Source: Patescibacteria group bacterium
Lineage (GTDB): Bacteria; Patescibacteriota; Patescibacteriia; JAHJFT01
Reading direction: 5' to 3'
DNA length: 64,000 nt
Assembly: GCA_028710985.1 (NCBI GenBank)
Contig: JAQTTB010000002.1
Location: 6,888-70,887 of the forward strand
Every line of letters starts with the position of its first letter. Position 1 is the first letter of the stretch. The position numbers and the translations under genes are program-made. Of the stretch, positions 5,631 to 64,000 are shown in pieces. A model generated the notes under the pieces. It saw only the letters and a program-made list of their open reading frames with translations, ran no database searches and was not told the origin of the DNA.

Positions 5631-5635
5631 AGATT

Positions 5636-6838: not shown

Positions 6839-6882
6839 GTACAGATGAGGGGCGGCGGGGCGCGTTATTGCTCAGCAAGACT

Positions 6883-7164: not shown

Positions 7165-7275
7165 GTCGCACCTCCTTTTATTACGCTAGCGACTCTTTCT
7201 TTTACCACAACCGCGCCCCGCCTGTCAAGAGATGGCAACTGCCCAAATAATTGAATAAAATGGAAAGTCAACATC

Positions 7276-7423: not shown

Positions 7424-7506
7424 CCAATAGCGATTGTAATTGATAATCCCATCCCAAAGGCAGTGCTTAACGATAACTTAATAAATGTCTAAAATTTTAT
7501 AAAATT

Positions 7507-8343
7507 ATGAAGATAAAAATTTTAGGTTCGGGTGCATGGGAAGGAATTCCAGTTCCATTCTGTAAATGTAAAATTTGCGAATCAGCAAAGAAACCTAATT
7601 CAAAAGATAACAGAACAAGACCGCAAATTTCAATTGAATCGGATGAAGGGCAATTTTTGATAGAAATAAGTCCTGACATTCGCATTCAATCCACAAAATT
7701 TAATTTACCAAATATTAGCAATTTCCTAATAAGTCACTGGCATTTTGACCACATGTATGGCTTATTAGAACTTCATGCATGGATAGAATTTGTTTTAGGA
7801 CAAAAATCAAAATTATTTTGCTCTCAAAAGACAAAAGAATGGCTCGACCAGAGTTTTGGACATATACCAAAAGAAATAATTGTAGTCAAGCCATTTGAAA
7901 AATTTGATTTATTTGGCACAAAAATTACTCCGATACCTCTTTATCACATGAGTGGGCGAGATAATAATACAAAAGAAAACGAATTAGATAATGCGTATGG
8001 TTTTCTTTTAGAAAAAAATGGTAAAAAGGCAATTTATCTCGCCGATTACTATAAATTGCCAAATAAATCTTTAGAACTTGTAAAAGATTCCGATATTATT
8101 ATTGCTGATGGAACTTATCTTTTTGAAGAATCTTTTCCAGACAAACCAGAGCAAAATAATTTAAAAACTGACCCAGACCATTTGCATGGAAAACAAATTC
8201 TTGATTTTGTTAGCGGATTGAATGCTAAGAAAGTGATTTTTCATAGTATTTCACATTTAACAGAAAAATCACATGAGGAACTTCAAAAATTGCTCCCAAA
8301 AAATATGTTTATTTCTTATGATGGAATGGAACTGGAATTATAA
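7507..8343 (+). CDS. MBL-fold metallo-hydrolase
   Basis: HWHFDH motif; 278 aa; single-gene cassette. Confidence 0.7.
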   Translation: MKIKILGSGAWEGIPVPFCKCKICESAKKPNSKDNRTRPQISIESDEGQFLIEISPDIRIQSTKFNLPNISNFLISHWHFDHMYGLLELHAWIEFVLGQKSKLFCSQKTKEWLDQSFGHIPKEIIVVKPFEKFDLFGTKITPIPLYHMSGRDNNTKENELDNAYGFLLEKNGKKAIYLADYYKLPNKSLELVKDSDIIIADGTYLFEESFPDKPEQNNLKTDPDHLHGKQILDFVSGLNAKKVIFHSISHLTEKSHEELQKLLPKNMFISYDGMELEL

Positions 8344-9855: not shown

Positions 9856-10245
9856 ATGGAAAAAAAGATTAACAAATTCATCTATTGGACGCCGAGAATA
9901 TTATCAATAATGTTCATTTTATTCTTGATGCTGTTTTCTTTGGACATCTTTGACATGGATTTGAATTTTTGTGAAACTCTCGTTGGTCTGTTTATGCATA
10001 ATATCCCCGCATTATTCCTGTTGATCATTTTAATAATTTCCTGGAAATATGAAATTGTCGGAGGAATCGCCTTTATTCTCGCGGGGCTACTCTATATCCT
10101 GTTGCTGGCAATGAATCCCGTATTTGGATGGTATATGCTGTCATGGCCGGTAACAATTTCCGGTCCGGCATTTTTAATAGGAACATTATTTTTGGTTGGC
10201 TGGTTTTTAAAAAGAAAATCCAATAAAAATATTACTAAAATTTAA
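9856..10245 (+). CDS. hypothetical polytopic membrane protein (last cassette-like gene)
   Basis: 129 aa with 4 predicted TM helices; follows R' GTTATGTG at 9818. Confidence 0.5.
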   Translation: MEKKINKFIYWTPRILSIMFILFLMLFSLDIFDMDLNFCETLVGLFMHNIPALFLLIILIISWKYEIVGGIAFILAGLLYILLLAMNPVFGWYMLSWPVTISGPAFLIGTLFLVGWFLKRKSNKNITKI

Positions 10246-10256
10246 CTAAAAAAATT

Positions 10257-10736
10257 ATGAAAAAAACATTTTTTATGTTTGCCGCATGCCTGGGATTTAT
10301 CATAATTTTATCCGGCTGCCAAACTTATTCTCCGGATATATCAACCGAATCACCCGGCATAGAAGACGCCCTTCAGCCGGTCGGCCTGGCAAATCCGGCA
10401 TCGGAAAATTGCGTACAAAAAGGCGGCACCTTGGAAATGCGAACGAACAAAAACGGCGAATACGGAGTTTGCCTTTTTGAAGACAACCGCCAATGCGAAG
10501 AATGGGCGCTTTTCCGCGGCAATTGTCCGGTTGGCGGTTTAAAAATCACGGGCTATGACAACGACGCCGAGATATATTGCGCCATCACCGGCGGACAGGT
10601 TGAAGGCGTGGGAACCGAAACTCCGATGTGCAAAAGAATCGACGGTACATATTGCAACGCCCAATCCAACCTGGATGGCGAATGCCCGGACCCGAATGAT
10701 CCGAATCCCAACGCCGGAAATGTGGAAGCGCCGTAA
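10257..10736 (+). CDS. DUF333-type lipoprotein (two Cys-rich repeats)
   Basis: Lipobox ILSGC. Duplicated 'NC...GG...C' modules (ENCVQKGGTLE...; EIYCAITGGQVE...). Confidence 0.55.
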   Translation: MKKTFFMFAACLGFIIILSGCQTYSPDISTESPGIEDALQPVGLANPASENCVQKGGTLEMRTNKNGEYGVCLFEDNRQCEEWALFRGNCPVGGLKITGYDNDAEIYCAITGGQVEGVGTETPMCKRIDGTYCNAQSNLDGECPDPNDPNPNAGNVEAP

Positions 10737-10746
10737 AAAGATATAA

Positions 10747-11202
10747 ATGAAAAAACCAAAACTGATAAGAATTGATCTGGACAAGCCGATTACCCGGCTT
10801 GTGGGCAAGAGTGATCACAAAACACTGGGAATCTGGGCGGCTGACTGCGCCGAGCGGGTATTGCACTATTTTGAAGAAAAATATCCAAAAGATAATCGTC
10901 CCCAAAAAGCAATCAAGGCGCTCCGAACGTGGGTTAAGACCGGGGTGTTTAAAATGGCGGATATACGCGGATATTCGCTTGCGGCTCACGCGGCCGCCCG
11001 CGAAGTGAAGGAAGATGACGACGCGGCCCGGTCCGCCGCCCGCGCCGCCGGCCAGGCGGTGGCGACCGCGCATGTTCAGACTCACGCGATCGGCGCCGCA
11101 ATCTATGCCGCCACCGCGGTCCGCGACGCGACCGGCTCAATTGATGCCGCGGCCAAGGAACGCGACTGGCAATACCGCCGCCTGCTCAAAATGATAAAAT
11201 AA
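10747..11202 (+). CDS. hypothetical Ala-rich protein, possibly an immunity-protein-like family
   Basis: 'WAADCAERVL' motif and an Ala-rich helical C-terminal half. Confidence 0.45.
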   Translation: MKKPKLIRIDLDKPITRLVGKSDHKTLGIWAADCAERVLHYFEEKYPKDNRPQKAIKALRTWVKTGVFKMADIRGYSLAAHAAAREVKEDDDAARSAARAAGQAVATAHVQTHAIGAAIYAATAVRDATGSIDAAAKERDWQYRRLLKMIK

Positions 11203-11206
11203 ATTT

Positions 11207-11692
11207 ATGGAATTTCTTGACATCGTTGACCAAAACGACAATGTCATCGGCACGGCTTCCCGGAACGAAGTCTACGAAAAATCGCTGTGCCACCGCATCG
11301 CGCATGTTTTAATATTCAACGAAGAAGGAAAAATTGTTTTACAAAAAAGAAGCGATAAAGTATGCTTTTGCCCGGGCCACTGGTCAACCGCGGTCGGCGG
11401 TCATGTGCAAACCGGCGAAACCTATGAGCAAGCCGCTCTGCGCGAATATCAGGAAGAACTAGGGGCGAAAAGCATACTGGAGTTTGTCGGGAAAGACTTA
11501 TATAATGTTCCCCATACTCCCAATAAATTTCTAACCACCTTCAGAACACAGTTCAATGGTCCATTCGATCCGGACGCTGAAGAGGTTTCCGAAGTCGGAA
11601 TGTTCGATATCCAGGAAATACAAACAATGCTCGAGCGCGGAGAAAAATTTCACCCTGAATTAATATTTATTCTAAAAAAGTATTATCTATGA
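11207..11692 (+). CDS. NUDIX hydrolase
   Basis: Nudix box GGHVQTGETYEQAALREYQEELG. Confidence 0.8.
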   Translation: MEFLDIVDQNDNVIGTASRNEVYEKSLCHRIAHVLIFNEEGKIVLQKRSDKVCFCPGHWSTAVGGHVQTGETYEQAALREYQEELGAKSILEFVGKDLYNVPHTPNKFLTTFRTQFNGPFDPDAEEVSEVGMFDIQEIQTMLERGEKFHPELIFILKKYYL

Positions 11693-40260: not shown

Positions 40261-43200
40261 TTAAGTATTTGTAGGTTCTTTCTCGGCCGTTAAAGATTCT
40301 ACTTCCTTCCAAAAATCCTTTTCTTCTTTTTTTGGATTAGACACTTTAAGTCCTTTAATTCGCTCTACAACAAAAGCTTTATTCTCACCCTCAGGCCAGT
40401 CCTTAAGGCGGGCTAACAAATCTTTAAAATCTTTTTCATAAGCTGGATAGGTTGGTTTCACTTCATCTAAAATTCCAAGAGAAGTCTGCAAGGAGTTCTT
40501 ATCACGATCCGGTCTCAACATATCAAACAAAACATAAACGAAATCTTTAACGGGAGTCTCCTGCATAATTCCTGTTAGGCTAGATACAGTTTTTAAGGCA
40601 AAATGATGAGCTGAAGTTAATATTTTTCCTGGTTGTCTGAGCCAATCCAGAATTTCTTTACCAATCTCTCGTTTTTTCTCTTCTCCCAAAAAGTCAGACT
40701 TGATTAAAAAGTTGAAGCCGGCTTCTTGAGACGCAAGTGCATCAGATTTTATAAGATTTTTAATTTGAGTTACTGCCTGATCTTTCAAATCTACTGGATC
40801 ATTTTTGCTTAATTGAATCGGCAGATAATCATAAACTGCAATTTGTTCTCCAAAAGGGATAGACGTTACTTTAGCCAATAAAGATTTTACAACCATTTGT
40901 CGATCCGGCAGATTATCGCCCAAACTCTTTATAAAATTCAAACTATTTGCACCCTTCTGGTTAATAATATTTTTAAGCAACTCAATCTTTTTATCCTTAT
41001 CTGCTTTTTTGTATACAATTTCTAATAACACATCATCACTCATACTACGAGATAGCAATGGTTTGAAGTAGGTAGATAGAAATTTTTCGGCAGTTTCTTT
41101 TTTCCAATAATCAAATACTAAACCAATCTTAGCGGCTCCAGCGTTTTGGAAGTAACCATTAATCTGAGCTACGAGTTCATTCTGTTGTGCTTCTGGCACA
41201 TAGAAGCTAATCCAACGTAAATTATTAACTAAGCCCGTGCGATTATCCCAAGCCCCAATACTATTAAACGCCTGGATAAAATTCTTTGTAAGCTGAATTT
41301 TAGTGCCGTCATCAACAATCTTAAACTGATCCTGAAATTCACTAAATATATCCCCGCAAGTAGCGAATAAAGTTTCTTTTTCTGCGCGGTAGTCTGGACT
41401 CTCGGTAGTCTCTTTATTTATTACTTCAGTAATTTTTTGCAGAATTATATTAAACTTGTTCTTCTCTGAAATGTATTCCTTAAACTGCTTAATTATTGTA
41501 ATCTGTCCCGATAGACTATCTCGGTTGAAATTAGCGATAAATTTGTCAAACGCCTGGGGAGAAATAAAGGTCGTCTGTTCTTCAAGTGTGCCAAATAGCG
41601 ATATAATATCGAAATTTGTTGAAAAATTCTCATCAATAAACTTAACGATCTGAATTTTATCTTCATCTGCTATTAATGAAGCGTTTTGTTTTAAGTTCGT
41701 AAGAATATCTTTTAATATTGACCCCATATTTGGCTTACGAACCTCTTCTGTTCCCACGGCCAAAACATAGCGCTTAATTAAGGGTGCGCGGAACTGGACA
41801 TCTAGTTCCTGCTTCGTAATAAGGTCAGAAAAAACTAAGTTAGTTTGGAGCTGAGTGAAAAATTGCCATAGATCAGCATCTAAAACACGAGCAAGGGATT
41901 CGTAATATACTTTAGTCGAAGACGAAATCCCCAATTCGTGGAAAGCCTCTAAGTGAGTAGTAAATATTTTAAGCAATATATCTCTCTGGCTCCTATACTC
42001 ACGCAAGAGATGACGGATAAAATCAACTAATGATCCTTTATTGGTTTCCGCCGAGGCAAGTTCCTTAAATTTATCTTTGTTGCCCTCGGCCAAACTCAGT
42101 ATCATTTCCTCTGAATTGTTGAGAGATTGATAAATGGTCGGTTCTTTGAAATAGATAAACGGGCGGGCGTTAGAAACGGTAATACGGCTCGTATTTAACA
42201 TGAAGTTACGTAAATCAGCAGAATCTTTATCTTTTAGAATGTTTTCTGGTTCAAACCATTTATCCTTTAATCGATGATAAGCGGGTGTAAATTTTTGTCT
42301 AAGCACCAATACTTTTGCTAAATAAGCGATATTGTCTTTAATCCTTTGCCATACCTCCGTTTTAGAAGCTAAGACTAATGCTGCTATTAAATTATTTATA
42401 AACTGTTTAATCTCACGAGGATTGTTAGAAAAAGCATTGCTAATCACATAAACAATATCCTCTGAATCTTGACCTTGGAGTAAACTTTTTATTTCGCCGG
42501 TATCATTAATCAGTTTTTTAATATATGCGTGAAGATCGGCTTCAATAAATTCGGGCGTCCAAATTACAACATTAAATAGCTTTCTAAGATATTCTGAAGG
42601 GTCAAAATCTTCATCATCCTGACCACCATAAAAACTTTTGATTTGGCTAATAATGGCTTCTGAATCGCAGGGAACTATAAAAACAAGTCCAGCAACACCG
42701 GCCGGATCAAGGAACGTTTTGATAGCAGAAAGAATTTTTATTGCCGCATCACCCTGAACACGATCAATGTTATCAAAAACTATTACAACTTTTTTATTAA
42801 CTTTTTGAAGTATCAGTCTAAACAGAGCTTCAAATTGCTCCGGGGAGTTTAACCGTTCCTCTTTTTCAACCCTTGTTTTAATAGAGGCAAGTGGATTTAA
42901 CGAAGATAAAAACTTTTCGACCGAGCGTTCCCAAACTTTCTCCAGTAAAGGCTTAAAAAAGAGAGCTAGAACAGAGAATGAAGCTACAACGGCCGCAAAA
43001 TCTTTAATTGTTTGAATAATCAGATTATTATTTTTGAAAATCAAATTTAAAATTACCCATCCGATTACTAAAATCAGAGATAAGACTAAAAGCCAGTTTG
43101 TTTTTAACAACAACCAAACTTTTTTAAGCCATCCGGCAGAGCTTACTTGCATTTCGGCCGTCGTTATTTCGCAACTTTCCTCTGTTGATTTATAAAGAGG

Positions 43201-43536
43201 GTCAAGTATTTTTTTATCCTCGGGCGAAAGTTGTTTTTGACTAATCAGAAAGTTTACTAATTCGATCAAAAAAATTCTGCGTAACGAATCTTCCTGATAT
43301 TTCCATGCATCAAAAACAAACATCGGGCTTTGTAGATCGTGACGTATCATTTCAATGATTGTACTTTTGCCCGTACCCCACCTACTAAAAAGTCCGATGG
43401 TATGAACACAAGAATCGTTTTCTAGTATCTCTTTCATAGCTGGAGCAACGTTCTCATGATAAAAGCCAAAAATACCATCTTGACCATTACCAAGCGGGAC
43501 ATCTTTCAAAAATTTAAATTTTAGTTCTTCGGGCAT
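40261..43536 (-). CDS. KAP-family P-loop NTPase (1091 aa, TM helices inserted into the P-loop domain)
   Basis: Walker A GLFSRWGTGKST; two hydrophobic helices after about residue 130; hhhhDNID Walker B-like (VIVFDNIDR). Confidence 0.7.
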   Translation of the reverse strand: MPEELKFKFLKDVPLGNGQDGIFGFYHENVAPAMKEILENDSCVHTIGLFSRWGTGKSTIIEMIRHDLQSPMFVFDAWKYQEDSLRRIFLIELVNFLISQKQLSPEDKKILDPLYKSTEESCEITTAEMQVSSAGWLKKVWLLLKTNWLLVLSLILVIGWVILNLIFKNNNLIIQTIKDFAAVVASFSVLALFFKPLLEKVWERSVEKFLSSLNPLASIKTRVEKEERLNSPEQFEALFRLILQKVNKKVVIVFDNIDRVQGDAAIKILSAIKTFLDPAGVAGLVFIVPCDSEAIISQIKSFYGGQDDEDFDPSEYLRKLFNVVIWTPEFIEADLHAYIKKLINDTGEIKSLLQGQDSEDIVYVISNAFSNNPREIKQFINNLIAALVLASKTEVWQRIKDNIAYLAKVLVLRQKFTPAYHRLKDKWFEPENILKDKDSADLRNFMLNTSRITVSNARPFIYFKEPTIYQSLNNSEEMILSLAEGNKDKFKELASAETNKGSLVDFIRHLLREYRSQRDILLKIFTTHLEAFHELGISSSTKVYYESLARVLDADLWQFFTQLQTNLVFSDLITKQELDVQFRAPLIKRYVLAVGTEEVRKPNMGSILKDILTNLKQNASLIADEDKIQIVKFIDENFSTNFDIISLFGTLEEQTTFISPQAFDKFIANFNRDSLSGQITIIKQFKEYISEKNKFNIILQKITEVINKETTESPDYRAEKETLFATCGDIFSEFQDQFKIVDDGTKIQLTKNFIQAFNSIGAWDNRTGLVNNLRWISFYVPEAQQNELVAQINGYFQNAGAAKIGLVFDYWKKETAEKFLSTYFKPLLSRSMSDDVLLEIVYKKADKDKKIELLKNIINQKGANSLNFIKSLGDNLPDRQMVVKSLLAKVTSIPFGEQIAVYDYLPIQLSKNDPVDLKDQAVTQIKNLIKSDALASQEAGFNFLIKSDFLGEEKKREIGKEILDWLRQPGKILTSAHHFALKTVSSLTGIMQETPVKDFVYVLFDMLRPDRDKNSLQTSLGILDEVKPTYPAYEKDFKDLLARLKDWPEGENKAFVVERIKGLKVSNPKKEEKDFWKEVESLTAEKEPTNT

Positions 43537-43603
43537 ATTTTTACTTTTTCACTACTTCTTCTACTAAAGATTTTATTTTCCAGATTTGGTCTAGTTACTT
43601 TGT

Positions 43604-44773
43604 TTACCGATTACCTTTTGCTCGATTGTGTGTCTTGCAAAGCATCTGGCAGTTTTTTGCTGAAGTTGCACCTCCCTTGCTCCAGGCTGCTACATGGTCT
43701 GCGTCCATTTCGCTAAAACTCCAAATCTTACTCTTGTTAGCATCATGCCCAATGGCACAATGCGGGCAGTTTGATTCGTCTTTTTTCTCTGCCTTGACGG
43801 TTTGTGTTGTATAAACCGTCTTTTTGGTTGCTTCATCAAAAACTCGGACTTCAAGTAATTTTGTGTCAATGGAACCACCAAGAATATACTCAAAAATACC
43901 TTTGCGATTTTTAACATACGGATCAGCATAGAGCTTCTGTACCTCGGCTGATACTTTGGCTGGATTGTACGATTTTTTATGGTGTTCCTCATAAAGTCGC
44001 CCCCACTCAAGACCGCGCATCTCGCTTTCAACATTAGTAAACACACTAGAAACCCAATCGATCACGCTGTTGAAATATTTTTTTAATTCATTAATATTTT
44101 TTTCAAAACGATGACGACTCATATAATCGCCGATATTACCTTTGCTTACCCAATCCAGCGCACATTCTAAAAATTCCTGCCGGTTAGCGCTACCGGATAC
44201 ATACGCGCTCCATTTTTGAATGTTGGCGTTTTGGCTATTACTAAATTCCTCCTTGCCGAGCGTTACAAACGGCCCGGAATACACCGCATTAAGTAATTCC
44301 TGACCATTAAGTGGAACACCGGCAATATTAATTGTTTTGAACCACTCTTTTATCTCGCTTTCTTTCCCTTCGCATTCGTAAATAAGTAAAGTAGTTTTTA
44401 AAATTTTACCCTGTTTGTCTTTTGCCATACCGCTAAAATATTGCTCCATGCCGTTTTCGTCTTTGATAGCAAATTTGTCAGTTATAAACCGCCCAAGACT
44501 AGTGATGCGTTGCTGGCCGTCTAAAACCTCTAAATTGTTGTCGCTTACTTTGTTAAAATAGATCAATCCTATCGGGTACTCTTTGAGGACTGATTCAATG
44601 ACGGCCATTTCTTTTTTACCACCATCAGAAGCATAAATATAATTGCGTTGATACTCCGGTTGAATGGTCAATTTACCAGACAAACCGAACAAACCCTTAC
44701 CTTCAAGTTCGTTATAGACAAACCCATCGCAAATATCTTTAACAGTAATATTAATTTTTAAAGTTGTTTTCAT
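43604..44773 (-). CDS. DUF262 (ParB-like) plus HNH nuclease; GmrSD/BrxU-like type IV restriction-type enzyme
   Basis: DUF262 motifs IQPEYQRNY and [11 protein letters not shown]-terminal HNH: CPHC...[12 protein letters not shown]...[15 protein letters not shown]. Confidence 0.7.
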
Positions 44774-45966
44774 ATTATTTTTTTCTTATGTTTAATAAGC
44801 ACTCTTTGATAAACTTTTTCCAATAAACCATCTCGAATAATTACTCCACTTGCGTTCAAGTCATAGGTTCCTGTTTTCCCGAATTTATCTAAATACGCCT
44901 GTTTACATTCTGCGGATGTATACACTTTTGTTTTTTGTTTATATAAATCTTCATTCTCACACATTCCAACAATCTTAAACTGCTCGGGGCTATATTTATC
45001 AAGAATACTGACCGGTACTCCCATTACGCCGCTGTAATCGCTCGGGATATTTTTTACTAACGACACTTCTATCGCGTTATAATTTTCATATTTCTCAAAC
45101 GGTTTTTTCATTACGAACTTTATCACCTCTGCCTTGGTCATGAGTGGGAGTGGCTGATGACGACGCCCATGGTCAAGATTGGTAAACCAGCGAACACCCT
45201 GCACTCTAGTGACATATACTTTTTTTCCGCTTTCATTTGTTTTTATTTCACGAACCTGCTCTAAATTGGCAATGTTTTCGGGTATCTCAAAAAACATTGC
45301 ACCGGCATTAACTTTGTAATTATTACCTAACCAAACTTTATTCTCTTTAAGTAATGGGAATATTTCTTTGTAGGTAATCGCGTTCAGGTTGCCGATGATC
45401 AAAAACTTTTTATCATACTTAACAAGTTGTTTTATGTACTCGCGAAATAGACTGAACGGCGGATTAGTTACCACAATGTCAGATTGTTTCAATAGATTAA
45501 TGGACTCATCGCTGCGAAAGTCGCCGTCGTCCTTTAGCGGCATCCATTCGTTATGTTTGTTTGCCTTTAACTGCTTAGCAATGTCTTTCAAGTTGAACTC
45601 GCCATCGCCGTCTATATCGCGCACTTCGTTAATAATGAACTTGTTGGCATTTATCTTTGGACGGCCTTTTGATTTAGTAAGAGTTTTGTCATCGCCAAAT
45701 AATTCCAGTTGCGTATTGGCAACGGGCGAGGGTTTGTAACTAGTGGTGATAAGCTGCTTCAATCCAAGCTTGTTGAAATTAAGCACGAAATAGCGGAAAA
45801 AATTGCTCTCAAACGGGTCGTCGCAGTTACAATACACCACCTTGCCTCGAAATACGTTAGGATCGTATTCCAAATACGCCTCAATCTCTTTCTGAATATC
45901 GCTGTACTGAGTATAAAACTCGTCATTCTTTACTTTTTTTGCGTTTGCAAGATTTTTGTTTGCCAT
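44770..45966 (-). CDS. N6-adenine DNA methyltransferase (NPPF motif; EcoRI-methylase-like family)
   Basis: N-terminal KNDEFYTQ and motif IV VVTNPPF. Overlaps the downstream DUF262-HNH gene by 4 bp. Confidence 0.65.
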
Positions 45967-45970
45967 AAAA

Positions 45971-46675
45971 TTATTTTTCGTTATCTAGGGCAAGCTTCAG
46001 TAAAAATATCGTCTCGGCTCTGAGTTTCGACTTCACCCAAGCTTTCTGCTTCTCGTCTAGAAGTTCGCCCATACCGGAAAGAATATTGCGGTCACTGACT
46101 TTCTCCAAAGAGTTAATGCATTTTTGTAAAAAATCTTTATAAGACGTTCCTGTTCGGCCCTCTATAATTTCTTTATTCACCGGCCAGTTATTATGCAAAA
46201 AATAATACACGTCAAAAATATCACGATTAGTCTTACCGATGCGTTCATACATCGCACAAAGTTTATGAGCCAACATATCTTCCTTCACCATGACTTTCAT
46301 AGAGATGCCAAGGTATGCCTTTACTTCATACCTCGATCCAAAATTCCGGCGATTTATTTCCACCTTAATATTTTGAGCACCGATTTCCTTATCATCGTAA
46401 GAAAGTAAAAATAAAAGATTGAACCTTTTCGTTTGAGCTTCTTTAATGGTGCCGTAGGCACTTAAAATCTTTTGAATTTGTTCAAAGACATAATCTTCCT
46501 TACTCTCTTCCAACAGATCAAAATCCAAGTCTACTGAAAAACGATTGAGATCATAAAAAAGAAAGGCGGCTGTACCTCCTTTGAATCCCAAAAGCGGTCC
46601 AATAGTTGAATCAGTGTAAATGTCTTTTAAAATTCTGACGAGAATATTTTTGTGTTTTACTGTATCAAGTGACAT
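45971..46675 (-). CDS. AbiEii/DUF1814 nucleotidyltransferase toxin
   Basis: GFKGGTAAFLFYDLNRFSVDLDFD motif. Confidence 0.75.
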   Translation of the reverse strand: MSLDTVKHKNILVRILKDIYTDSTIGPLLGFKGGTAAFLFYDLNRFSVDLDFDLLEESKEDYVFEQIQKILSAYGTIKEAQTKRFNLLFLLSYDDKEIGAQNIKVEINRRNFGSRYEVKAYLGISMKVMVKEDMLAHKLCAMYERIGKTNRDIFDVYYFLHNNWPVNKEIIEGRTGTSYKDFLQKCINSLEKVSDRNILSGMGELLDEKQKAWVKSKLRAETIFLLKLALDNEK

Positions 46676-46680
46676 AGAAT

Positions 46681-47313
46681 TTATTTGGGATTATTTATTA
46701 AAGACTCGTGATATTTTTTGACCATTCTCTCCATTCGTTTATTACCTCCGTAGATAGGCAAGATTAAGTTAACTTTGTCCCAATCCAAAACTGACAAATT
46801 ATCAAAATGATAATCCGTGTTTAAATAAACAACATCTAAAAATGCTCTTTCAGTCGAAGCAATACTGTAATTATCTTTTATTTCGATGCCGGCATTGTTA
46901 GTGAGAATTTCGTCTTTAATCCTTTTGAAAGCAACTACTTGCCCATCGCATTCAATTTCTTTATTTTGGTACGAAGCAACAAAAATTTTAGAGTAGTGTT
47001 GAAAGGTTACACCGGCCGATCCGAGGACGGTTTCAAAACTGACGTAAGAAGGCGTAAATATTTTGGTAGCTAACTCATATTTGTCGTAATTTTTGTCCTT
47101 GGCATAAAGACCGCGACGTATATGGTAAAGATTATTGTGTTTAGTATAGTAATTAACCCTTGAACCAGCGGTAAGCTTGTCAATTCCTCCCCAAAGCAAA
47201 ATAAGGTCTTTGAAAGAAAAAACCGTTTTGCTTGATCTCAATATTTCGTTTAAAAAGCCTTTTTCCATATGTTTGAAGTTAAATATAAGACCCTGCCTTA
47301 TGTTCAACTCCAA
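46681..47313 (-). CDS. AbiEi-like antitoxin / transcriptional regulator
   Basis: Directly upstream of AbiEii; N-terminal wHTH-like region with IRRGLYA; 210 aa. Confidence 0.65.
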   Translation of the reverse strand: MELNIRQGLIFNFKHMEKGFLNEILRSSKTVFSFKDLILLWGGIDKLTAGSRVNYYTKHNNLYHIRRGLYAKDKNYDKYELATKIFTPSYVSFETVLGSAGVTFQHYSKIFVASYQNKEIECDGQVVAFKRIKDEILTNNAGIEIKDNYSIASTERAFLDVVYLNTDYHFDNLSVLDWDKVNLILPIYGGNKRMERMVKKYHESLINNPK

Positions 47314-50996: not shown

Positions 50997-52607
50997 ATGA
51001 ACCAGGAAGTACAACCAAAATTCAAGTACTTCCTCTACGCTCGAAAATCTTCAGAACAAGAAGATAGACAGGTCCTTTCGATTGACTCGCAAAAGAGCGA
51101 ACTGGAAGCGCTTGCAAAAAGAGAAAAGCTCCAAATTGTGGAGCGTCTGGAAGAATCATACTCGGCCAAAGCACCGGGCCGTGAGATTTTCAATCAGATG
51201 ATAAAACGGATAGAGAAAGGCGAAGCTGAGGGCATAATCGCCTGGCATCCGAACCGGCTCTCGCGTAATTCCGTGGACACCGGATACCTGGTCTATCTCA
51301 TGGATCAGAACAGGCTTCAGGACATACGTACACCCGGTCAGGCCTATCGAAACACACCGAATGATAAATTTCTTCTTAACCTCCTGTGTAGTCAGGCTAA
51401 ACTTGAAAATGATAATAAGGGTATTGATGTAAAACGCGGACTAAGGCGCAAGGTAGAAATGGGTTGGCACCCTGGGCCAGCACCGGTTGGCTATATGAAC
51501 ACGCCAGATAAGCTGAAAGGTTTTAAAACGATCCGCAAAGACCCGAAGATGTTTCCGATTGTTCGGAAAATGTTTGATATGCTTTTAAGCGGAGATTTTA
51601 CCGCTCCCCGTGTTCATGAGATTGCTATTAGCAATTGGGGCGTAAAGAAATTAGCGCGAAGCGGATTCTACCGCGTGCTTTATAATCCTTTCTATTATGG
51701 CTGGTTTGAATGGCCACAAGGCTCAGGTAACTGGCACAAAGGCAAGCACGAGCCGATGATCACACGCGACGAATACGACCGAGTCCAAAAACTACTCGGC
51801 CATGGGAGCAAACCAAAACCGGAAACCCACACTTTCGCTTACACCGGCATGATTCGTTGCGGCGAGTGCGGCTGTATGGTTACGGCCGAGAATAAAATAA
51901 AGAAAAACAAAAACGGCAACGTCCATCACTACACCTATTATCACTGCACTAAAAGAAAAGGTCCGTGCAGTCAGAAATGCATTGAGGTGGATGAACTGGA
52001 AAAACAGATCAAAAAAACGTTGGCCAAAGTTCAGCCACCGGAAGAATTCCACGGCTGGGCAATGAAGTGGCTTCAGAACGAAAACGGACGCGAGGCGGCC
52101 GATCGAAACGCAATACTTTCCAACCAACAAAAGAATTACGAAGTCTGCGTGAAAAAACTAGACGCTTTAATTGATATGCGCGCCGCCGGCGAGATCAGCG
52201 AAGAAGAATTCACACGCAAGAAATCGGAAGTCAACCAGGAAAAAGCCAAGTTGCACGAACTTCTAAATGACACTGACAGCCGCATAGACAGCTGGCTTCA
52301 GACGGCCGATAACATTTTAACCTTCGCCGGCGACGCCAACGAAGCGTTCACAGAACGAGGCCAGCATGCGAGAAAAGTAATTTTGTCTGCCCTCGGTTCG
52401 AACCTCCTCTTAAAAGACAAAAACATAAGAATTGACACGGATTCCGCGCTTCTGCCGTTAATTCTTGTCTCATCCGGGTCAAATCAAAAAATTGGACGGT
52501 TAGAACCTGCCCAAATAGGCTCTAATAAAGAGAAAAGCGGAGCTTTTGGCTCCGCAAATCCCACATGGCTCTGGGGGTGGGATTCGAACCCACGACCAAT
52601 TGGTTAA
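50997..52607 (+). CDS. large serine recombinase (integrase)
   Basis: N-terminal resolvase domain (YARKSSEQEDRQVLSIDSQ), recombinase domain and zinc ribbon (CGECGC...YYHC). The ORF 3' end runs into the tRNA-Asn 3' end, so the true stop may be earlier. Confidence 0.85.
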   Translation: MNQEVQPKFKYFLYARKSSEQEDRQVLSIDSQKSELEALAKREKLQIVERLEESYSAKAPGREIFNQMIKRIEKGEAEGIIAWHPNRLSRNSVDTGYLVYLMDQNRLQDIRTPGQAYRNTPNDKFLLNLLCSQAKLENDNKGIDVKRGLRRKVEMGWHPGPAPVGYMNTPDKLKGFKTIRKDPKMFPIVRKMFDMLLSGDFTAPRVHEIAISNWGVKKLARSGFYRVLYNPFYYGWFEWPQGSGNWHKGKHEPMITRDEYDRVQKLLGHGSKPKPETHTFAYTGMIRCGECGCMVTAENKIKKNKNGNVHHYTYYHCTKRKGPCSQKCIEVDELEKQIKKTLAKVQPPEEFHGWAMKWLQNENGREAADRNAILSNQQKNYEVCVKKLDALIDMRAAGEISEEEFTRKKSEVNQEKAKLHELLNDTDSRIDSWLQTADNILTFAGDANEAFTERGQHARKVILSALGSNLLLKDKNIRIDTDSALLPLILVSSGSNQKIGRLEPAQIGSNKEKSGAFGSANPTWLWGWDSNPRPIG

Positions 52608-52640
52608 CAGCCAACTGCTCTGCCACTGAGCTACCCCAGA
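52566..52640 (-). tRNA. tRNA-Asn (GTT), CCA encoded
   Basis: Cloverleaf folded by hand: acceptor TCTGGGG/CCCCAGA, D arm GCTC-AGTGGCA-GAGC, anticodon loop CTGTTAA, T arm GTGGG-TTCGAAT-CCCAC. Confidence 0.85.
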
Positions 52641-57164: not shown

Positions 57165-57281
57165 AAGGGACGGCGGGAATCGAACCCGCAACCTTTCCGG
57201 TTCCGGAATCGTGCTCAAGATAGGAGGTCAGTCCTTAGTCGACTCCGGTCGTTAACGCTCTGCCAGTTGAGCTACGTCCCT
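57165..57281 (-). tRNA. tRNA-like gene (117 nt) with canonical acceptor, D and T arms but a roughly 40-45-nt insertion in the anticodon/variable region; possible intron-containing tRNA or tRNA-derived pseudogene
   Basis: 5' AGGGACG-T-A-GCTC-AACTGGCA-GAGC-G ... 65-nt region with a 9-bp internal stem (CCGGAGTCG/CGATTCCGG) ... GCGGG-TTCGATT-CCCGC-CGTCCCT-T. A terminator hairpin lies downstream at about 57096-57125. Confidence 0.4.
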
Positions 57282-57827: not shown

Positions 57828-59390
57828 CTACTTCTTGGGAATGACCGGCTCGCAGTCGTGGATAACTATCCATCCGTCTTCGAGCGTGTAGTCCTCGCCC
57901 AGGCACTTGATGCGCCTGGGGATGACGAATTTCTCCTCGCTGACCTGGCTCTTGACCTGGCTCTGGAGTAACGAGATTTGACCCTCGAGTGACGAGATCT
58001 GGCCTTCGAGACCGGAGACTTGTCCTTCGAGTTCGCCTTTCTCGTTCTGGAGCTCCTGCACTCGTTTGGCATCCTCCCTGCCCTGCTGCAGGTCTTTGTC
58101 CAACGGGGGGCTGAAGACCTTCATCACGCCGTCGGTTGAGTACCAGGTGTAAATCTCCGGCTCCTCGCTCGCGGCGGAAGATTCGGCCGTCTCGGTCTCA
58201 TCCTCGGCTGAAGCGACAATGACCATGTCGGTCTGCTCCACCGGGACCGCGGTTTCCTCCAAGGCGTCGCCTGCTTCGGCATCGCTCGGCGCGATGACCA
58301 CGGGCTCGATGTCCGCCGGAGCGGGCACGGGCTCCACCTTGGTCAGGGCGGCCATGGAGTCATCCGTCTCGTGCTGCATGTCCTTGCCGCCGAACAGCCT
58401 ATTCCACCCCTGCCATTCATCCCGGCTGGTGACAACCAGGACGGTGACCAGGAACGCGGCCACGACTACGAAGCCGCCGACCGGCCACCATCTCTTGAAT
58501 TTGGACTTGGACTTCTCGACTTCCGCCATCGGCGCCTTGTCCGGAGAATCCTTGCCCTTTCCATTGTCCATTGCCTTATCCTCCTTTTTCTGCGCGAACT
58601 CGATCAATCGCTCGATCTTGTTCACTGTGCCGTTGTTGTCCCACTCGATGGCATACGCCACGGTTTCCGGCCGCACCGCGATCTGGACAATCTTGAACTT
58701 CACTAATCCGTTGCTGTCGGTCATGCCACTGTCGCTTTCCGCGGTTGGGCAGTCATCATCACTGAGACCGTCTCCCATGAGCATGATCTTGACATTCTTC
58801 GTATCCGGGACAAGGGTAATCATGATGCCGGTTGCCGCCTTATCGTGTTCGCGCACACGCGCGCGCACGGCGGCCGGCGAACCGACGTGCACCGAGTCCG
58901 GCGCTTCCACATCGCAGTGAAGCTCGCGCTGCGCCATTCTTTCCCCAATGCTGATGAACTCGGGTTCGGTAAGCAGCGCCTGTTCATCGCCGAAAACCGC
59001 CACCAGGCGCTCGATCGAATCCTCGACCCTGGTGTCCGGATTCAGCCACGAAATGTTAATCTTGGCGTCGCCCGGCCGGTCAAGACAGACCGTGAAATCG
59101 GCACGGCCGTCCGCGCTTGTCCCCTTCCCCACGTTCAGGCTGGGCGTTGATTCGAGCATTTCTCTCAGCTCGTTCTCCTTGCCCATCATGTCGTCCGGTA
59201 TGCACATACGCGTAATATCCGGATCGTCCAAGATATGCGCCGAACCTTCGGCCGTCACGAAAACCGTGACATTCTGAACCGGGCACGTGCCGCGCAGGGC
59301 AACGACCCTTATGATGACGATATCGCCGACCGACGCCATGTCGGTCGTATCGTCAACGATGACTTTAAAACCGTTTGGCTGGTCTTCCAT
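57828..59390 (-). CDS. hypothetical GC-rich protein (520 aa) with central TM helix, acidic tracts and C-terminal GQxSxLE coiled-coil repeats
   Basis: ORF with a GAGAGGGA Shine-Dalgarno. Repeats GELEGQVSGLEGQISSLEGQISLLQSQV. Composition differs from neighbouring genes. Confidence 0.5.
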   Translation of the reverse strand: MEDQPNGFKVIVDDTTDMASVGDIVIIRVVALRGTCPVQNVTVFVTAEGSAHILDDPDITRMCIPDDMMGKENELREMLESTPSLNVGKGTSADGRADFTVCLDRPGDAKINISWLNPDTRVEDSIERLVAVFGDEQALLTEPEFISIGERMAQRELHCDVEAPDSVHVGSPAAVRARVREHDKAATGIMITLVPDTKNVKIMLMGDGLSDDDCPTAESDSGMTDSNGLVKFKIVQIAVRPETVAYAIEWDNNGTVNKIERLIEFAQKKEDKAMDNGKGKDSPDKAPMAEVEKSKSKFKRWWPVGGFVVVAAFLVTVLVVTSRDEWQGWNRLFGGKDMQHETDDSMAALTKVEPVPAPADIEPVVIAPSDAEAGDALEETAVPVEQTDMVIVASAEDETETAESSAASEEPEIYTWYSTDGVMKVFSPPLDKDLQQGREDAKRVQELQNEKGELEGQVSGLEGQISSLEGQISLLQSQVKSQVSEEKFVIPRRIKCLGEDYTLEDGWIVIHDCEPVIPKK

Positions 59391-59512
59391 TGTTCCCTCT
59401 CTTTTTTTGGTTAAAGAGCTGATTTCACAACTTAACAGAAAAGTCTAAGATTGTCAATATCCTGACCAAGATTTGAAAAATTAGCCTATTTTTGCTATAA
59501 TTTGAGTAATTT

Positions 59513-60064
59513 ATGATAATAATTCTGCTTCAGGCTTTTTATCTTGCCCTGCCGGCCTATCTTGCCAATATGGCGCCGGTTATTATTGATAAACTCCGCC
59601 TTTTTCAGTTCCTAAACAAGCCCATTGATGCCAACCGCCTCTGGCGCGACGAACCGATTTTAGGCCGAGGCAAAACCTGGCGCGGCCTGATCTGCGGCGC
59701 TCTAACTGCCGTGGCGGTTGCCGGAATCCAGGCTCTTTTATATAACGAAAATCTGTTCCGGGAAATTACTATTGTTGATTTTTCCGGATATAATTTTCTG
59801 CTTTTTGGATTCCTAGCAGGCAGCGGCGCGCTTCTCGGCGACCTGATAAAAAGTTTTTTCAAGCGCCGCCTCGGCATCTTGTCCGGCGCTTCCTGGCCGA
59901 TTGCCGACCAGCTTGATTTTATCGCCGGGTTCCTGCTCTTCACCGGGTGGCTCGTCCGTCCCGAATGGCCAGTGGTCGTTGCCCTGATTATTCTGACCCT
60001 GATTCTCCATCCTCTGACCAATCTTATCGGCTATCTGATCCGATTTAAAAAAGTCTGGTGGTAA
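59513..60064 (+). CDS. DUF46/CarS-like CDP-alcohol (CDP-archaeol/CDP-diglyceride) synthase homologue
   Basis: LPAYLANMAPV and GRGKTWRG motifs; 5 TM helices; 183 aa. Confidence 0.55.
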   Translation: MIIILLQAFYLALPAYLANMAPVIIDKLRLFQFLNKPIDANRLWRDEPILGRGKTWRGLICGALTAVAVAGIQALLYNENLFREITIVDFSGYNFLLFGFLAGSGALLGDLIKSFFKRRLGILSGASWPIADQLDFIAGFLLFTGWLVRPEWPVVVALIILTLILHPLTNLIGYLIRFKKVWW

Positions 60065-60065
60065 T

Positions 60066-60935
60066 ATGAAAAAAGCGCTCGTATTCTACAATCCCAAGGC
60101 CGGCATTGTTTCCAAAAATAAAAAACGGCAGAAGCTCGTTGACGCGCTGGACCAGGCCGGCATCCAATCCCAGACTGTTCTGGTGCAGGATTATTGTAAA
60201 AAAAATTACCCGTCCAATGCACAATGTGATGTCGTGATTGCCGCCGGCGGCGACGGCACCATTTGCTTAGCCGCAAACTACATCATGAAACATTGTCCCG
60301 GAACGCCGCTCGGCATCATTCCCATGGGCTCGGGAAATCTTTTCGCCGAAACCATGTCCATTCCGGTAAATTTCGAACGCGCGATCAAAACCATCGCCGC
60401 CGCCAAAACAAAAAAAATTGATCTTGGCCTGGTGGACGGCCGTGAATATTTTGTATTATCATTTTCAATTGGCCACATGGCCGAAGTCATCTGCCGCACC
60501 CCGCAGTGTGATAAACAGCGCTACGGATTTTTTGCCTACCTCAAGGCCTTCATCATCCGCCGTATCAAAATTCGCCAGTTTGAATTTGAGGTTGACGGCA
60601 AGCCGTTCAAAATATTTGGCAATAATCTTTTTATATTCAACGGCATCCGCTTTTTTGGCTTCACCCCGGCAAAAAAATCCGATTGCCAGGACGGCGAGTT
60701 GGATCTTTTCATCACCTCCAACCGCTCGTTCATCGGCTGGTGGCAGGCCTTTTTATACATGGTACTTTTTAAAAAACCGCCGCACCTTGTCTCTACCACT
60801 TCAGGAAAAGAGTTTATCATTCACTCCACCGAAACTGGCGATCTTCGCGCCCAGATTGACGGCGACCGGCTGGAGCTCGGCCGAAGCGCCAAGATTACCA
60901 TCGTGCCATCTGTTCTTGATGTCATAACTCCCTAA
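60066..60935 (+). CDS. diacylglycerol-kinase-family lipid kinase (YegS/BmrU-like)
   Basis: DAGK_cat motifs VVIAAGGDGT and GIIPMGSGNLFA. Confidence 0.8.
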   Translation: MKKALVFYNPKAGIVSKNKKRQKLVDALDQAGIQSQTVLVQDYCKKNYPSNAQCDVVIAAGGDGTICLAANYIMKHCPGTPLGIIPMGSGNLFAETMSIPVNFERAIKTIAAAKTKKIDLGLVDGREYFVLSFSIGHMAEVICRTPQCDKQRYGFFAYLKAFIIRRIKIRQFEFEVDGKPFKIFGNNLFIFNGIRFFGFTPAKKSDCQDGELDLFITSNRSFIGWWQAFLYMVLFKKPPHLVSTTSGKEFIIHSTETGDLRAQIDGDRLELGRSAKITIVPSVLDVITP

Positions 60936-60939
60936 ATTT

Positions 60940-61530
60940 ATGTCAAACCGTTTTTTTGAAATAAAAGAAAAACTCCTCTCTTCCACTGTCCGGCATTTTC
61001 CGCGTTTTATAACGCCCAACCTGATCACCATAATGCGGATATTTTTTTTGCCGGTAATTATTTATTACATCCTCCATGGCAGGTTATTCGTAGCCATGAT
61101 TTTTTTCATTATAGTTTTTCTCCTTGACGTACTCGACGGTCCGCTCGCGCGAAGTCGAGGCCTGGTCACCAATTTCGGCGCGCTCGCCGATCCGTTTATT
61201 GATAAAATAATCTTCATCACCGTCCTGCTGCTTGTCACCTGGAACTCCCTGCCGCATTCGGTTATCTATACAATACTCGCCCTGGAAATTATGATGATGC
61301 TGGTCGCCGCCGTGCTCGCGCCTGTTGCTAAAAAACTTAACTTTAAATTCAAGGTCGGCGCCAACAAGTGGGGAAAATACAAAATGGTACTACAATTCGC
61401 CGGCATTGTCCTGATCATGGCCGCGCCGGAAAATCGAATTGTCATTGAAATCGCCACCGTATTTTTCTGCCTGGCGATAATCTATTCCGCCCGCAGCCTG
61501 GTCACCCACTGCAAGTCAATACAGCAATAA
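60940..61530 (+). CDS. CDP-alcohol phosphatidyltransferase (PgsA-like)
   Basis: D-G-x2-A-R...G-x3-D-x3-D motif LDVLDGPLARSRGLVTNFGALADPFIDK. Confidence 0.8.
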   Translation: MSNRFFEIKEKLLSSTVRHFPRFITPNLITIMRIFFLPVIIYYILHGRLFVAMIFFIIVFLLDVLDGPLARSRGLVTNFGALADPFIDKIIFITVLLLVTWNSLPHSVIYTILALEIMMMLVAAVLAPVAKKLNFKFKVGANKWGKYKMVLQFAGIVLIMAAPENRIVIEIATVFFCLAIIYSARSLVTHCKSIQQ

Positions 61531-61548
61531 AAAACTTTCAAACAATAA

Positions 61549-61572
61549 AACACGCTCCCGCGTGTTTTTTTT
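61549..61572 (+). terminator. rho-independent terminator of the lipid operon
   Basis: ACACGCTCCCGCGTGT followed by TTTTTTTT. Confidence 0.6.
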
Positions 61573-61575
61573 ATT

Positions 61576-61712
61576 TGTCATCCTGAGCCCCCCGCATAGC
61601 GGGGCGGGCGAAGGATCTCACATTTCTCGCAAACCGCTGTGGCGCCATGAATAGTCATCACGAGACCGTGAGATCCTTCGCCCCGCCTTCGGCGGGACTC
61701 AGGATGACGACA
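61576..61712. repeat. MITE-like palindromic element: two inverted copies of an approx. 45-bp hairpin-containing repeat (GTCATCCTGAG-CCCGC-NNNN-GCGGGG-CGAAGGATCTCAC)
   Basis: Left copy 61577-61620 and right copy (reverse complement) 61668-61708. Each carries a CCCGC-tetraloop-GCGGG hairpin, as in the GIY-YIG element TIRs. Confidence 0.5.
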
Positions 61713-61771: not shown

Positions 61772-62239
61772 TTAATTCAACCGCCAAACGTTTATCGCGA
61801 GAAACGTGGCGAACGCCACCCAGCCGGCGTACGGCAGCATGAGCCATGCCGCAGCGCGCGAGCGCGGCCATTCCATAATCATTATCGCGATGACCGTGGC
61901 CTCGAGAAATATCATCTCCAAAATCGCAAGCCCCATCAAATGCCACGCAAACCACAGCACGCACCAAAACGCGTTCAAGAAACCGTTGATAATAAAAAGT
62001 ACGGCTATCATCCTGAATCCCGCGTCATGTGGAAACTTATTCCACGCGATCAAAAGCGAAATGGTGGAAAGAATGTAAATCACGGTCCACGCCGCGCCAA
62101 TGACCCAGCCCGGCGGAGCGAACGCCGGAAGTTTTAACGTATCGTACCAGTCCATTCCCATCCCGGTAAAATATGATCCCAGCCAGCCGATGGCGAACGT
62201 GACAAGCGGTATAATTATGTAATTTGGTTTAATTTTCAT
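61772..62239 (-). CDS. tspO: TspO/MBR family tryptophan-rich sensory protein
   Basis: 5 TM helices and Trp-rich motifs; trimmed to MKIKPNY (155 aa). Confidence 0.8.
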   Translation of the reverse strand: MKIKPNYIIIPLVTFAIGWLGSYFTGMGMDWYDTLKLPAFAPPGWVIGAAWTVIYILSTISLLIAWNKFPHDAGFRMIAVLFIINGFLNAFWCVLWFAWHLMGLAILEMIFLEATVIAIMIMEWPRSRAAAWLMLPYAGWVAFATFLAINVWRLN

Positions 62240-62964: not shown

Positions 62965-63648
62965 TTATAATTCATAAATCACATCCTTGCGTTCCACCAC
63001 GATCTTCCAACCGCGCCGCTTTGCTTCGTCATAAAGCTTGCGGTTTGGATTGAAACAAACCGGATTTTCAACGGCTCCAAGCAGACTGATATCCCCCTCG
63101 CTGTCGCCCACACCGTACGAACCCTCGAGCGTGAGATCTTCTTTCTCGCGCGCCCTCTCCAAAATCTTGGCCTTGTCGGCAATCAAATCCGCATATTCCA
63201 TCACGCCGGTGAACTTTCCGTCATCGCCCACCACGTAAATCCGGCCGTAGACTTTATCAAAGCCCATGCCGTTCCCAAAATCCTGCACAATCTCCATGGG
63301 CGAATGAGAAATCGCGAGTAAAAAATAATCCTTGGATTTTAATTCGCGAACAAGATCGCGCGTGTACCGATAGACGCGATTCTTCATTTGCCCGATCACT
63401 CGGCCAACCACATTTTTAAACCGCGCGTAATCCACGCCGGCAATGTTATTATTATAAGCCGAAACCACGGCATTGATATAATCGTCGTAAGAGCCCCGCC
63501 GGTCCAGCCAGGCGGCATATTGGTTTTCAAACGCCCGGCGGAAATCTTTTGGAAAAAGGCCCTCGTCAACCATCTCGTTTACGAGCTCAATTAAAAGGCT
63601 GGACCGAAAAATCGTGCCGTCGATATCAAATATTGCAACTTTTTTCAT
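62965..63648 (-). CDS. HAD-superfamily hydrolase (subfamily IB-like)
   Basis: MKKVAIFDIDGTIF DxDGT motif; trimmed to the internal ATG. Confidence 0.7.
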   Translation of the reverse strand: MKKVAIFDIDGTIFRSSLLIELVNEMVDEGLFPKDFRRAFENQYAAWLDRRGSYDDYINAVVSAYNNNIAGVDYARFKNVVGRVIGQMKNRVYRYTRDLVRELKSKDYFLLAISHSPMEIVQDFGNGMGFDKVYGRIYVVGDDGKFTGVMEYADLIADKAKILERAREKEDLTLEGSYGVGDSEGDISLLGAVENPVCFNPNRKLYDEAKRRGWKIVVERKDVIYEL

Positions 63649-63652
63649 AAGA

Positions 63653-64000
63653 TTAACATTTCCCCGCGAGCTGACCGCAGGCGGCTTCAATATCCTGACC
63701 AAAACTCCAGCGCTGGGTCACATTCACCCCGGCCTGTGCCAAAATTTCTTTAAAGGCTTTTATGCGTTCGGCTTTTGACGCTAAGAAATTGCCGGTCGGA
63801 TTAAAGCGGATTAAATTGACAAAATATAATGGATTATTCATGAGCCGCGCCAGAGCGCGCGCGTCTTCGTCTGTGTCATTTACCCCGTCAATCATCAGAT
63901 ATTCAAACATCACCTTACGCCGCGTCTTCCCGGCGTACTGTGCCACCTCGGCCATGAGCTCGTCAAGCGGATATTTTTTGGCAATCGGCATGAGCCGGAC
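63653..64000 (-). CDS. rlmN: 23S rRNA/tRNA m2A methyltransferase RlmN (radical SAM), C-terminal part; gene continues beyond the window
   Basis: C-terminal motifs EYLMIDGVNDTDEDARALARLM, NLIRFNP, DIEAACGQL. The ORF stays open to the window edge. Confidence 0.8.
   Translation of the reverse strand, partial: VRLMPIAKKYPLDELMAEVAQYAGKTRRKVMFEYLMIDGVNDTDEDARALARLMNNPLYFVNLIRFNPTGNFLASKAERIKAFKEILAQAGVNVTQRWSFGQDIEAACGQLAGKC

Follow-up and report, generated by a model that had tools for sequence, protein, structure and literature searches.

A CarS-family protein in a putative phospholipid salvage or recycling operon of a Patescibacteria bacterium

The window analyzed here, a 64,000-nucleotide stretch of contig JAQTTB010000002.1 from a Patescibacteria group bacterium, carries three adjacent forward-strand genes. 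They encode a protein of the CDP-archaeol synthase (CarS) family (59513-60064, 183 residues), a lipid kinase of the DgkB/YegS/BmrU type (60066-60935, 289 residues) and a PgsA-like CDP-alcohol phosphatidyltransferase, or CAPT (60940-61530, 196 residues). As a first-pass annotation of this DNA had claimed, the genes are co-directional and nearly abutting, with gaps of 1 and 4 nucleotides. A predicted sigma-70-type promoter on the same strand (59473 to 59501; TTGAAA, a 17-nucleotide spacer and TATAAT with an extended -10 TG) matches 11 of 12 consensus positions and is the top site of the region. It ends 12 nucleotides upstream of the CarS ATG codon, which implies a very short leader or none. The kinase start is preceded by a GGTGG resembling a Shine-Dalgarno sequence. 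A hairpin with the features of an intrinsic terminator (61547 to 61568; 9-bp stem, 4-nucleotide loop, T-runs on both strands) lies 17 nucleotides downstream of the CAPT stop codon; it could close the operon and double as a terminator for a convergent TspO gene. From these consensus matches and the spacing, we treat the three genes as one operon.

The three open reading frames (ORFs) are real genes rather than chance ones: the first has hundreds of homologues, the gene order is kept in other species, and the same order is found in an independent Logan assembly (locus L001 of the comparison described below). Their GC content, overall and at third codon positions (GC3), matches that of the housekeeping genes of the window, so that neither a recent acquisition nor an assembly chimera is indicated. 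The first protein is 100% identical to one from a metagenome-assembled genome of a Patescibacteria group bacterium. Pfam scans of the window identify bacterial RpoD, DnaG, DnaB, UvrABC, MraZ/MraW and ribosomal protein L21.

The first gene had been described from its sequence as DUF46/CDP-archaeol-synthase-like, and profile searches agree. The CarS-like profile PF01864 matches with 111 bits (cut-off 22) over residues 1-183 and profile positions 1-175 of 175, and the NCBIfam CarS equivalog NF003114 scores 156.3 bits against a cut-off of 148. Both motifs quoted in the annotation, LPAYLANMAPV and GRGKTWRG, are present in the protein. By contrast, the CdsA family profile PF01148 gives a local match only (37.9 bits, residues 53-122), covering 62 of its 264 positions (169-230) in the catalytic C-terminal part; the CdsA model NF008635 reaches 25.9 bits against a cut-off of 385, far from a full-length CdsA, and E. 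coli CdsA (b0175) aligns with 19 bits. The closest solved relative is Aeropyrum pernix CarS (ApCarS, 5GUF), alignable end to end with 32% identity. An AlphaFold2 model of the protein has a pLDDT of 95.2 and a pTM of 0.89. When this model was compared with the PDB using Foldseek, 5GUF was the sole hit with E ≤ 0.001 (E 2.5e-6, TM-scores 0.72/0.82, root-mean-square deviation 2.6 Å) and no CdsA structure was retrieved. The model thus assigns to the protein the compact fold of ApCarS, that of an integral membrane protein.

Twenty-five positions are at least 90% conserved in both bacterial and DPANN archaeal sets of CarS sequences and identical in ApCarS, including GKT, GD, SFxKR and DQxD; the window protein retains LPA..AN, GKT, GD..SF.KR and DQ.D. 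It differs from ApCarS by an additional segment of about 18 residues (around 77-95) that is common to the DPANN sequences. We propose that the protein is a CarS-family CTP:lipid-phosphate cytidylyltransferase, which would make a CDP-activated diradylglycerol.

The second product matches the diacylglycerol kinase catalytic domain PF00781 (DAGK_cat) with 88.2 bits, in line with its first description as a lipid kinase of this type. Its closest solved relative is DgkB of Staphylococcus aureus (2QV7, E 1.5e-18), its PDB matches are lipid kinases throughout, and no transmembrane segment is predicted in its 289 residues. The motifs NPxxG, GGDGT, GSxN, D119, DG and QIDGD/E are conserved across 15 CarS-linked orthologues, and the YegS_C domain PF19279 is absent from the precomputed Pfam domains of the close ones. 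The subfamily is small and divergent, with 14 clusters at 45-57% identity and the next at about 31%. A soluble enzyme of the DgkB/YegS/BmrU type is what these features suggest, one that would phosphorylate diacylglycerol (DAG) or a related diradylglycerol to phosphatidate.

The third product had been called a CDP-alcohol phosphatidyltransferase, rightly so to judge from its match to PF01066 (CDP-OH_P_transf, 98.5 bits) and from a complete D-x2-D-G-x2-A-R-x8-G-x3-D-x3-D motif in the alignment with S. aureus PgsA (7DRJ), its closest PDB relative. Its several hydrophobic segments are those of a polytopic membrane protein. It is probably a PgsA-like integral membrane enzyme that would make phosphatidylglycerophosphate (PGP).

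Are these genes also linked in other genomes? A scan of species-representative genomes returned at least 550 CarS relatives, and neighborhoods were counted in the best 80 loci (about 33 from Patescibacteria, 46 from DPANN archaea and a few ambiguous records), in all of which ORFs were called and clustered. The search used peptide patterns that pre-select motifs like those of DPANN and the Candidate Phyla Radiation (CPR), and the loci were read as flanks of 6-8 kb on either side of CarS. A DAGK_cat kinase lies directly 3' of CarS in 15 of the 33 Patescibacteria loci, versus one of 46 in DPANN, where it is distant only. About 11 of the 33 have a PgsA-like gene abutting or near CarS; in six loci, this gene overlaps the CarS start by 4 nucleotides. 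The order seen in the window recurs in L001, L002 and L022. In L016 and L019, it becomes GT4 glycosyltransferase, CarS, kinase, PgpA (PF04608, 110 bits) and PgsA-like gene, and a GT4 gene also precedes CarS in L022. With PgpA inserted, the series from DAG through phosphatidate, CDP-DAG and PGP to phosphatidylglycerol (PG) is complete, and the position of PgpA beside the corresponding CAPT gene favors PGP as the CAPT product.

Some ten further loci, Falkowbacteria among them, have CarS and the kinase, often followed by MnmA. Among the CarS-kinase loci, a gene for a PlsC-type acyltransferase follows at a distance of a few genes in L047, L084 and L086 (TIGR00530 in L084: 123.8 bits, cut-off 103). 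A second CAPT, nearer to the inositol-phosphate types, occurs downstream in L026 and L058. All CarS-linked CAPTs that we tested score highest against bacterial pgsA, and the recurrent partners of the bacterial CarS-like gene all belong to bacterial acyl-glycerophospholipid metabolism. In a neighbor-joining tree, the kinase-linked loci fall in one CarS clade. Its members can be as little as about 48% identical in CarS and 27-36% in the kinase, and their flanking genes differ. The persistence of the CarS-kinase pair despite this divergence and these changed flanks points to selection for linkage, beyond recent shared ancestry alone.

Other recurrent neighbors were seen at these loci. In about ten Patescibacteria species, the CarS-kinase pair is preceded by two consecutive genes resembling type IV secretion system coupling proteins (one with DUF8128, one with TrwB_AAD_bind and a zinc finger), either directly (L004, L005, L010, L012, L015, L047, L084, L086) or separated from it by a UvrD-type gene (L014, L017); this synteny could be inherited or reflect a functional link to host contact. 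In the Buchananbacteria loci L082 and L083, CarS is followed after about 1.4 kb by a bAvd and reverse transcriptase pair resembling a diversity-generating retroelement (9926-11302). The titles of records proved unreliable: the 4.8-kb contig L003 (JAABXR010000265.1), although assigned to a 'Phycisphaerae' bin, encodes a CarS 58% identical to that of the window, and among L004-L081 many third-party annotation records titled 'uncultured Gammaproteobacteria' or 'Methanosarcinales' have a Patescibacteria-like or DPANN-like gene content.

How does the window protein relate to archaeal CarS? At E ≤ 1e-10 it retrieves representatives of 915 clusters built at 50% identity. CarS of Woese-, Pace- and Nanoarchaeota shares 41-49% identity with it; for one cluster of Bathyarchaeota the figure is 45%, and for one of Aenigmarchaeota 41%. 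The idea that DPANN sequences are uniquely close is weakened by this Bathyarchaeota cluster, and by the pre-selection of DPANN-like motifs in our patterns. Neighbor-joining trees, for which the one long branch of ApCarS served as root, intersperse bacterial CarS sequences with archaeal ones at several points; Bathyarchaeota and Aenigmarchaeota appear basal, on this weak rooting. The pattern fits at least one transfer from archaea to Patescibacteria, but the rooting is weak, and from trees of this kind and sampling we do not trust the number or direction of events.

The DPANN loci are truly archaeal, as they encode diphthamide synthase and RNase P Rpr2. Their CarS (Woese-, Pace- and Nanoarchaeota) has a CAPT nearby in 30 of 46 loci, a phosphatidylserine decarboxylase in 19 and a PHP-domain phosphoesterase directly upstream in about 14; about ten have PlsC-like acyltransferases (PF01553), which was unexpected. 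Example clusters are L021 2066-6537, L023 4729-6522 and L055 550-1696. The PHP protein is a candidate for an archaeal phosphatase acting on PGP or archaetidylglycerophosphate, and the PF01553 genes hint at acyl-lipid remodeling in these archaea.

In known pathways, phosphatidate is formed from lyso-phosphatidate by PlsC or from DAG by a DgkB-type kinase, and PgsA and PgpA convert CDP-DAG to PG. The operon could specify a comparable series. The soluble kinase would convert DAG, or a close diradylglycerol, to phosphatidate; the CarS-family membrane enzyme would use CTP to turn phosphatidate into a CDP-activated lipid, the reaction of CdsA in other bacteria; the PgsA-like enzyme would transfer the phosphatidyl group to glycerol-3-phosphate, and a phosphatase, such as the PgpA encoded in the operon of relatives, would then give PG. 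The DAG might come from host or necromass lipid (for instance through phospholipase C) or, equally well, from the cell's own turnover. A CAPT needs a CDP-alcohol, and the CarS-like protein is the only enzyme of these clusters that could join phosphatidate to one. The substrates, the direction of flux and a role of CarS as sole CDP-lipid synthase are what we infer.

On balance, we think it probable that this unit represents the late, membrane-proximal phospholipid assembly of the bacterium, starting from a neutral lipid. That a bacterial operon for phospholipid salvage or recycling has taken up a CarS-family enzyme is likewise the explanation we favor, with moderate confidence, on sequence and gene context. 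The annotation had proposed just such a kinase, CDP-lipid synthase and head-group transferase chain, a plausible one that the conserved synteny and the PgpA and PlsC-type genes of related clusters considerably strengthen. Its family assignments hold, while its further claims (a bypass of CdsA, scavenged DAG, a diacyl substrate) are more tentative.

Several known systems help place the operon. With archaeal CarS (A. pernix 5GUF, Archaeoglobus fulgidus; PF01864, EC 2.7.7.67), the window protein shares family, length and fold. It differs in having a bacterial host, neighbors that are bacterial acyl-lipid enzymes instead of GGGPS and DGGGPS, and a presumed substrate, diacyl phosphatidate, which characterized CarS enzymes handle poorly. 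With CdsA (PF01148; Thermotoga maritima 4Q2E, E. coli b0175), it shares the superfamily, the proposed reaction (phosphatidate and CTP to CDP-DAG) and the feeding of PgsA, but at 183 residues it is much shorter than CdsA, which has about 285. Gram-positive bacteria such as S. aureus and Bacillus subtilis recycle DAG through DgkB, CdsA and PgsA, a cycle linked to lipoteichoic acid synthesis. The reactions proposed for the operon are of these three types and run in this order, and S. aureus DgkB and PgsA are the closest solved structures; here, however, the genes form one operon and the middle enzyme is of CarS type. Unlike Gram-positive bacteria, the window organism is thought unable to make acyl chains, so that its DAG may be foreign. 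CPR glycolysis offers a further parallel: its cupin PGI, TIM and PGM are of archaeal type (Jaffe et al. 2020, PMC7304191), again archaea-associated enzymes for a universal step, but those are soluble, whereas CarS is a membrane enzyme on the divide between archaeal and bacterial lipids.

Searches for other lipid genes bear on the place of this unit in the cell. When the ORFs of all six frames were taken from the window and from 86 loci (about 0.9 Mb) and searched with E. coli CdsA in phmmer, CarS-like ORFs alone were retrieved and no cdsA, and Pfam scans detected no canonical cdsA, plsX, plsY, plsC or fab genes in the 64-kb window. No GGGPS, DGGGPS or UbiA-type gene was detected among the window ORFs scanned with Pfam or among those called in the flanks. 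A HAD hydrolase on the opposite strand (62965-63702) was considered as a PGP phosphatase, but it matches the generic HAD-IB family only.

Is CarS compatible with a diacyl substrate? A number of observations speak against the recycling or salvage pathway that we favor. In a review (PMC9385802, reporting Jain 2014), A. fulgidus CarS is described as highly selective for the unsaturated isoprenoid substrate digeranylgeranylglyceryl phosphate (DGGGP) over phosphatidate and as failing to complement an E. coli cdsA mutant, and the lipid grooves of ApCarS as wider than those of T. maritima CdsA. A signature of switched substrate was sought by comparing 33 bacterial with 46 DPANN CarS sequences. Just two positions tell the sets apart, a T/S one in the last helix and one in the KKVWW/EKW tail at the C-terminus (W against K), and we read nothing into them; because essentially no specificity signature separates the two sets, the CarS substrate is read from gene context. 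The best NCBIfam model for the CAPT, bacterial pgsA TIGR00560, scores 83 bits, under its cut-off of 109.1, and the kinase is likewise below the cut-offs of TIGR00147 (96.1 versus 118.65) and of the DgkB equivalog PRK13337 (88.7 versus 385), which makes the substrates of both enzymes family-level guesses. Some 12 of the 33 Patescibacteria loci have no lipid gene beside CarS; these include Buchananbacteria, Peregrinibacteria and one contig that ends just after CarS. A tblastn search with PgpA found no PGP phosphatase in the operon or the 64-kb window, and queries with PlsC and GT4 likewise gave nothing in the window. The absence of cdsA and of acyl-lipid synthesis genes applies to 64 kb of a genome with at least one contig of 159.6 kb.

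If the protein does what its database name says, the unit would be a salvage route for archaeal lipids: archaeol or another diether glycerol taken from archaeal hosts or neighbors would be phosphorylated to archaetidic acid, activated by CarS and passed to the CAPT, and the bacterial membrane would come to contain lipids of archaeal or mixed type. The equivalog score and the ApCarS fold point this way, as do the 41-49% identity to DPANN and Bathyarchaeota sequences, which puts the window protein inside archaeal diversity, the DGGGP preference of characterized CarS as given in the review (PMC9385802), and the fact that some Patescibacteria parasitize methanogenic archaea (PMC12281837). The company of the gene suggests otherwise, since the linked genes are all of bacterial acyl-lipid type (DgkB-like kinase, PgsA, PgpA, PlsC-type acyltransferase) and ether-lipid genes were missing from the window and flanks searched. 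Moreover, the lipids attributed to CPR in situ are fatty-acid-based lysolipids according to one study (PMC7242380), and the gene is widespread in groundwater lineages of unknown host. We consider such archaeol salvage very unlikely. A less drastic alternative makes the operon an accessory one: a canonical CdsA encoded elsewhere would supply the bulk of CDP-DAG, and the CarS unit would serve a minor lipid, such as a polyprenyl-, lyso- or glycolipid-related phosphate. Room for this comes from the cdsA search, which covered only the window and related flanks, from the loci where CarS stands without lipid neighbors, from the small and divergent kinase subfamily and from the GT4 gene 5' of CarS in three loci. 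Yet the roughly 0.9 Mb of related flanking DNA held no cdsA either, the PgpA and PgsA-like partners indicate a mainstream PG pathway, and two CDP-lipid synthases would be unexpected in a genome of about 1 Mb. An accessory role thus seems unlikely to us, though not negligibly so.

Misassignment of one of the enzymes would also change the picture. The CarS-like protein could be a CTP-dependent lipid kinase of the dolichol/phytol kinase superfamily, as its match to PF01148, whose superfamily holds such kinases, might suggest; or the DAGK_cat protein could be an NAD kinase, the name NCBI gives to its orthologue P0122 (NAD(+)/NADH kinase) and a family, PF01513, that it matches weakly. The first version is at odds with the six loci where a CAPT, which requires a CDP-alcohol, overlaps CarS at start and stop codons. 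The second conflicts with the PF01513 score itself (18.7 bits, under the 25.5 cut-off, against 88 for PF00781), with the PDB matches, none of which is an NAD kinase, and with the persistent linkage of the kinase to CarS. Either error appears hardly credible.

A bolder extension of the recycling or salvage pathway can be imagined, in which the CarS subfamily shared by Patescibacteria and DPANN is a substrate-tolerant CDP-lipid synthase for stolen diradylglycerol, whether ester or ether, based on glycerol-3-phosphate or on glycerol-1-phosphate; ultra-small symbionts of both domains could thereby reactivate such lipid and give it a new head group. We hold this to be speculative and rather improbable. 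Were it true, an enzyme central to the lipid divide would have passed between domains and be acting on the 'wrong' lipid, and Patescibacteria living on archaea could build mixed membranes.

Around the operon, the convergent TspO/MBR gene (61772-62239, reverse strand) is adjacent to it, as in L002, and five Patescibacteria species (the window, L002, L018, L046 and L076) have such a gene no more than about 6 kb from CarS. Between the operon terminator and the end of this gene, a GC-rich imperfect palindrome (61575-61712) folds into a three-way junction of -83.3 kcal/mol (z -7.25 versus shuffles); the window holds no second copy of it, and Rfam gave no match. Divergent from the operon is a 520-residue ORF (57828-59390, reverse strand) with the highest GC of the region (0.59; GC3 0.77). 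It matches no Pfam family, and its product has a single hydrophobic segment and, at the C-terminus, a LEGQ(V/I)SxLEGQIS repeat; a homologue occupies the same position in the 'Phycisphaerae' contig mentioned above. Beyond it lies a 117-nucleotide tRNA-like gene (57165-57281, reverse strand; 47 bits with the Rfam tRNA model) with 57 nucleotides in the anticodon/variable region where the model has 13. ARAGORN missed it by default and, in intron mode, gave a doubtful tRNA-Arg(CCT) with a 24-nucleotide intron and a long extra arm.

Farther away, two islands of low GC content (0.31-0.40 versus about 0.50) are probably acquired defense islands: 2368-8343, with a tyrosine integrase, a D12 adenine methylase and ORFs of unknown function, and 40261-47313, with a 1091-residue ORF, a GmrSD-N/HNH nuclease, an EcoRI-type methylase and an AbiEii toxin. 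A large serine recombinase (50997-52640; Resolvase, Recombinase and Zn ribbon domains, 536 residues) overlaps at its 3' end a tRNA-Asn on the opposite strand, possibly at the border of an integrated element.

A large part of bacterial diversity belongs to Patescibacteria. In two sources (PMC11665869, PMC7242380), the group is reported to lack lipid synthesis, a condition that the annotation thought the pathway would suit, and lipid acquisition is presented as an open question; lysolipids from neighbors are suggested as a source, with no mechanism identified for their uptake or processing. We found no discussion of CarS in CPR or Patescibacteria in the literature we searched, which is not proof that none has been published. 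The operon offers a concrete, clonable gene set for the question of how Patescibacteria assemble their membrane lipids, and it puts an enzyme of CarS type, a family until now taken as a sign of archaeal ether-lipid synthesis, inside what would be a bacterial acyl-lipid pathway. If the enzyme accepts a diacyl lipid, the database name 'CDP-2,3-bis-(O-geranylgeranyl)-sn-glycerol synthase' would be wrong for hundreds of bacterial genes, the presence of CarS in a metagenome would cease to indicate archaeal lipids, and the split between CdsA and CarS would be less absolute than the literature on the lipid divide assumes.

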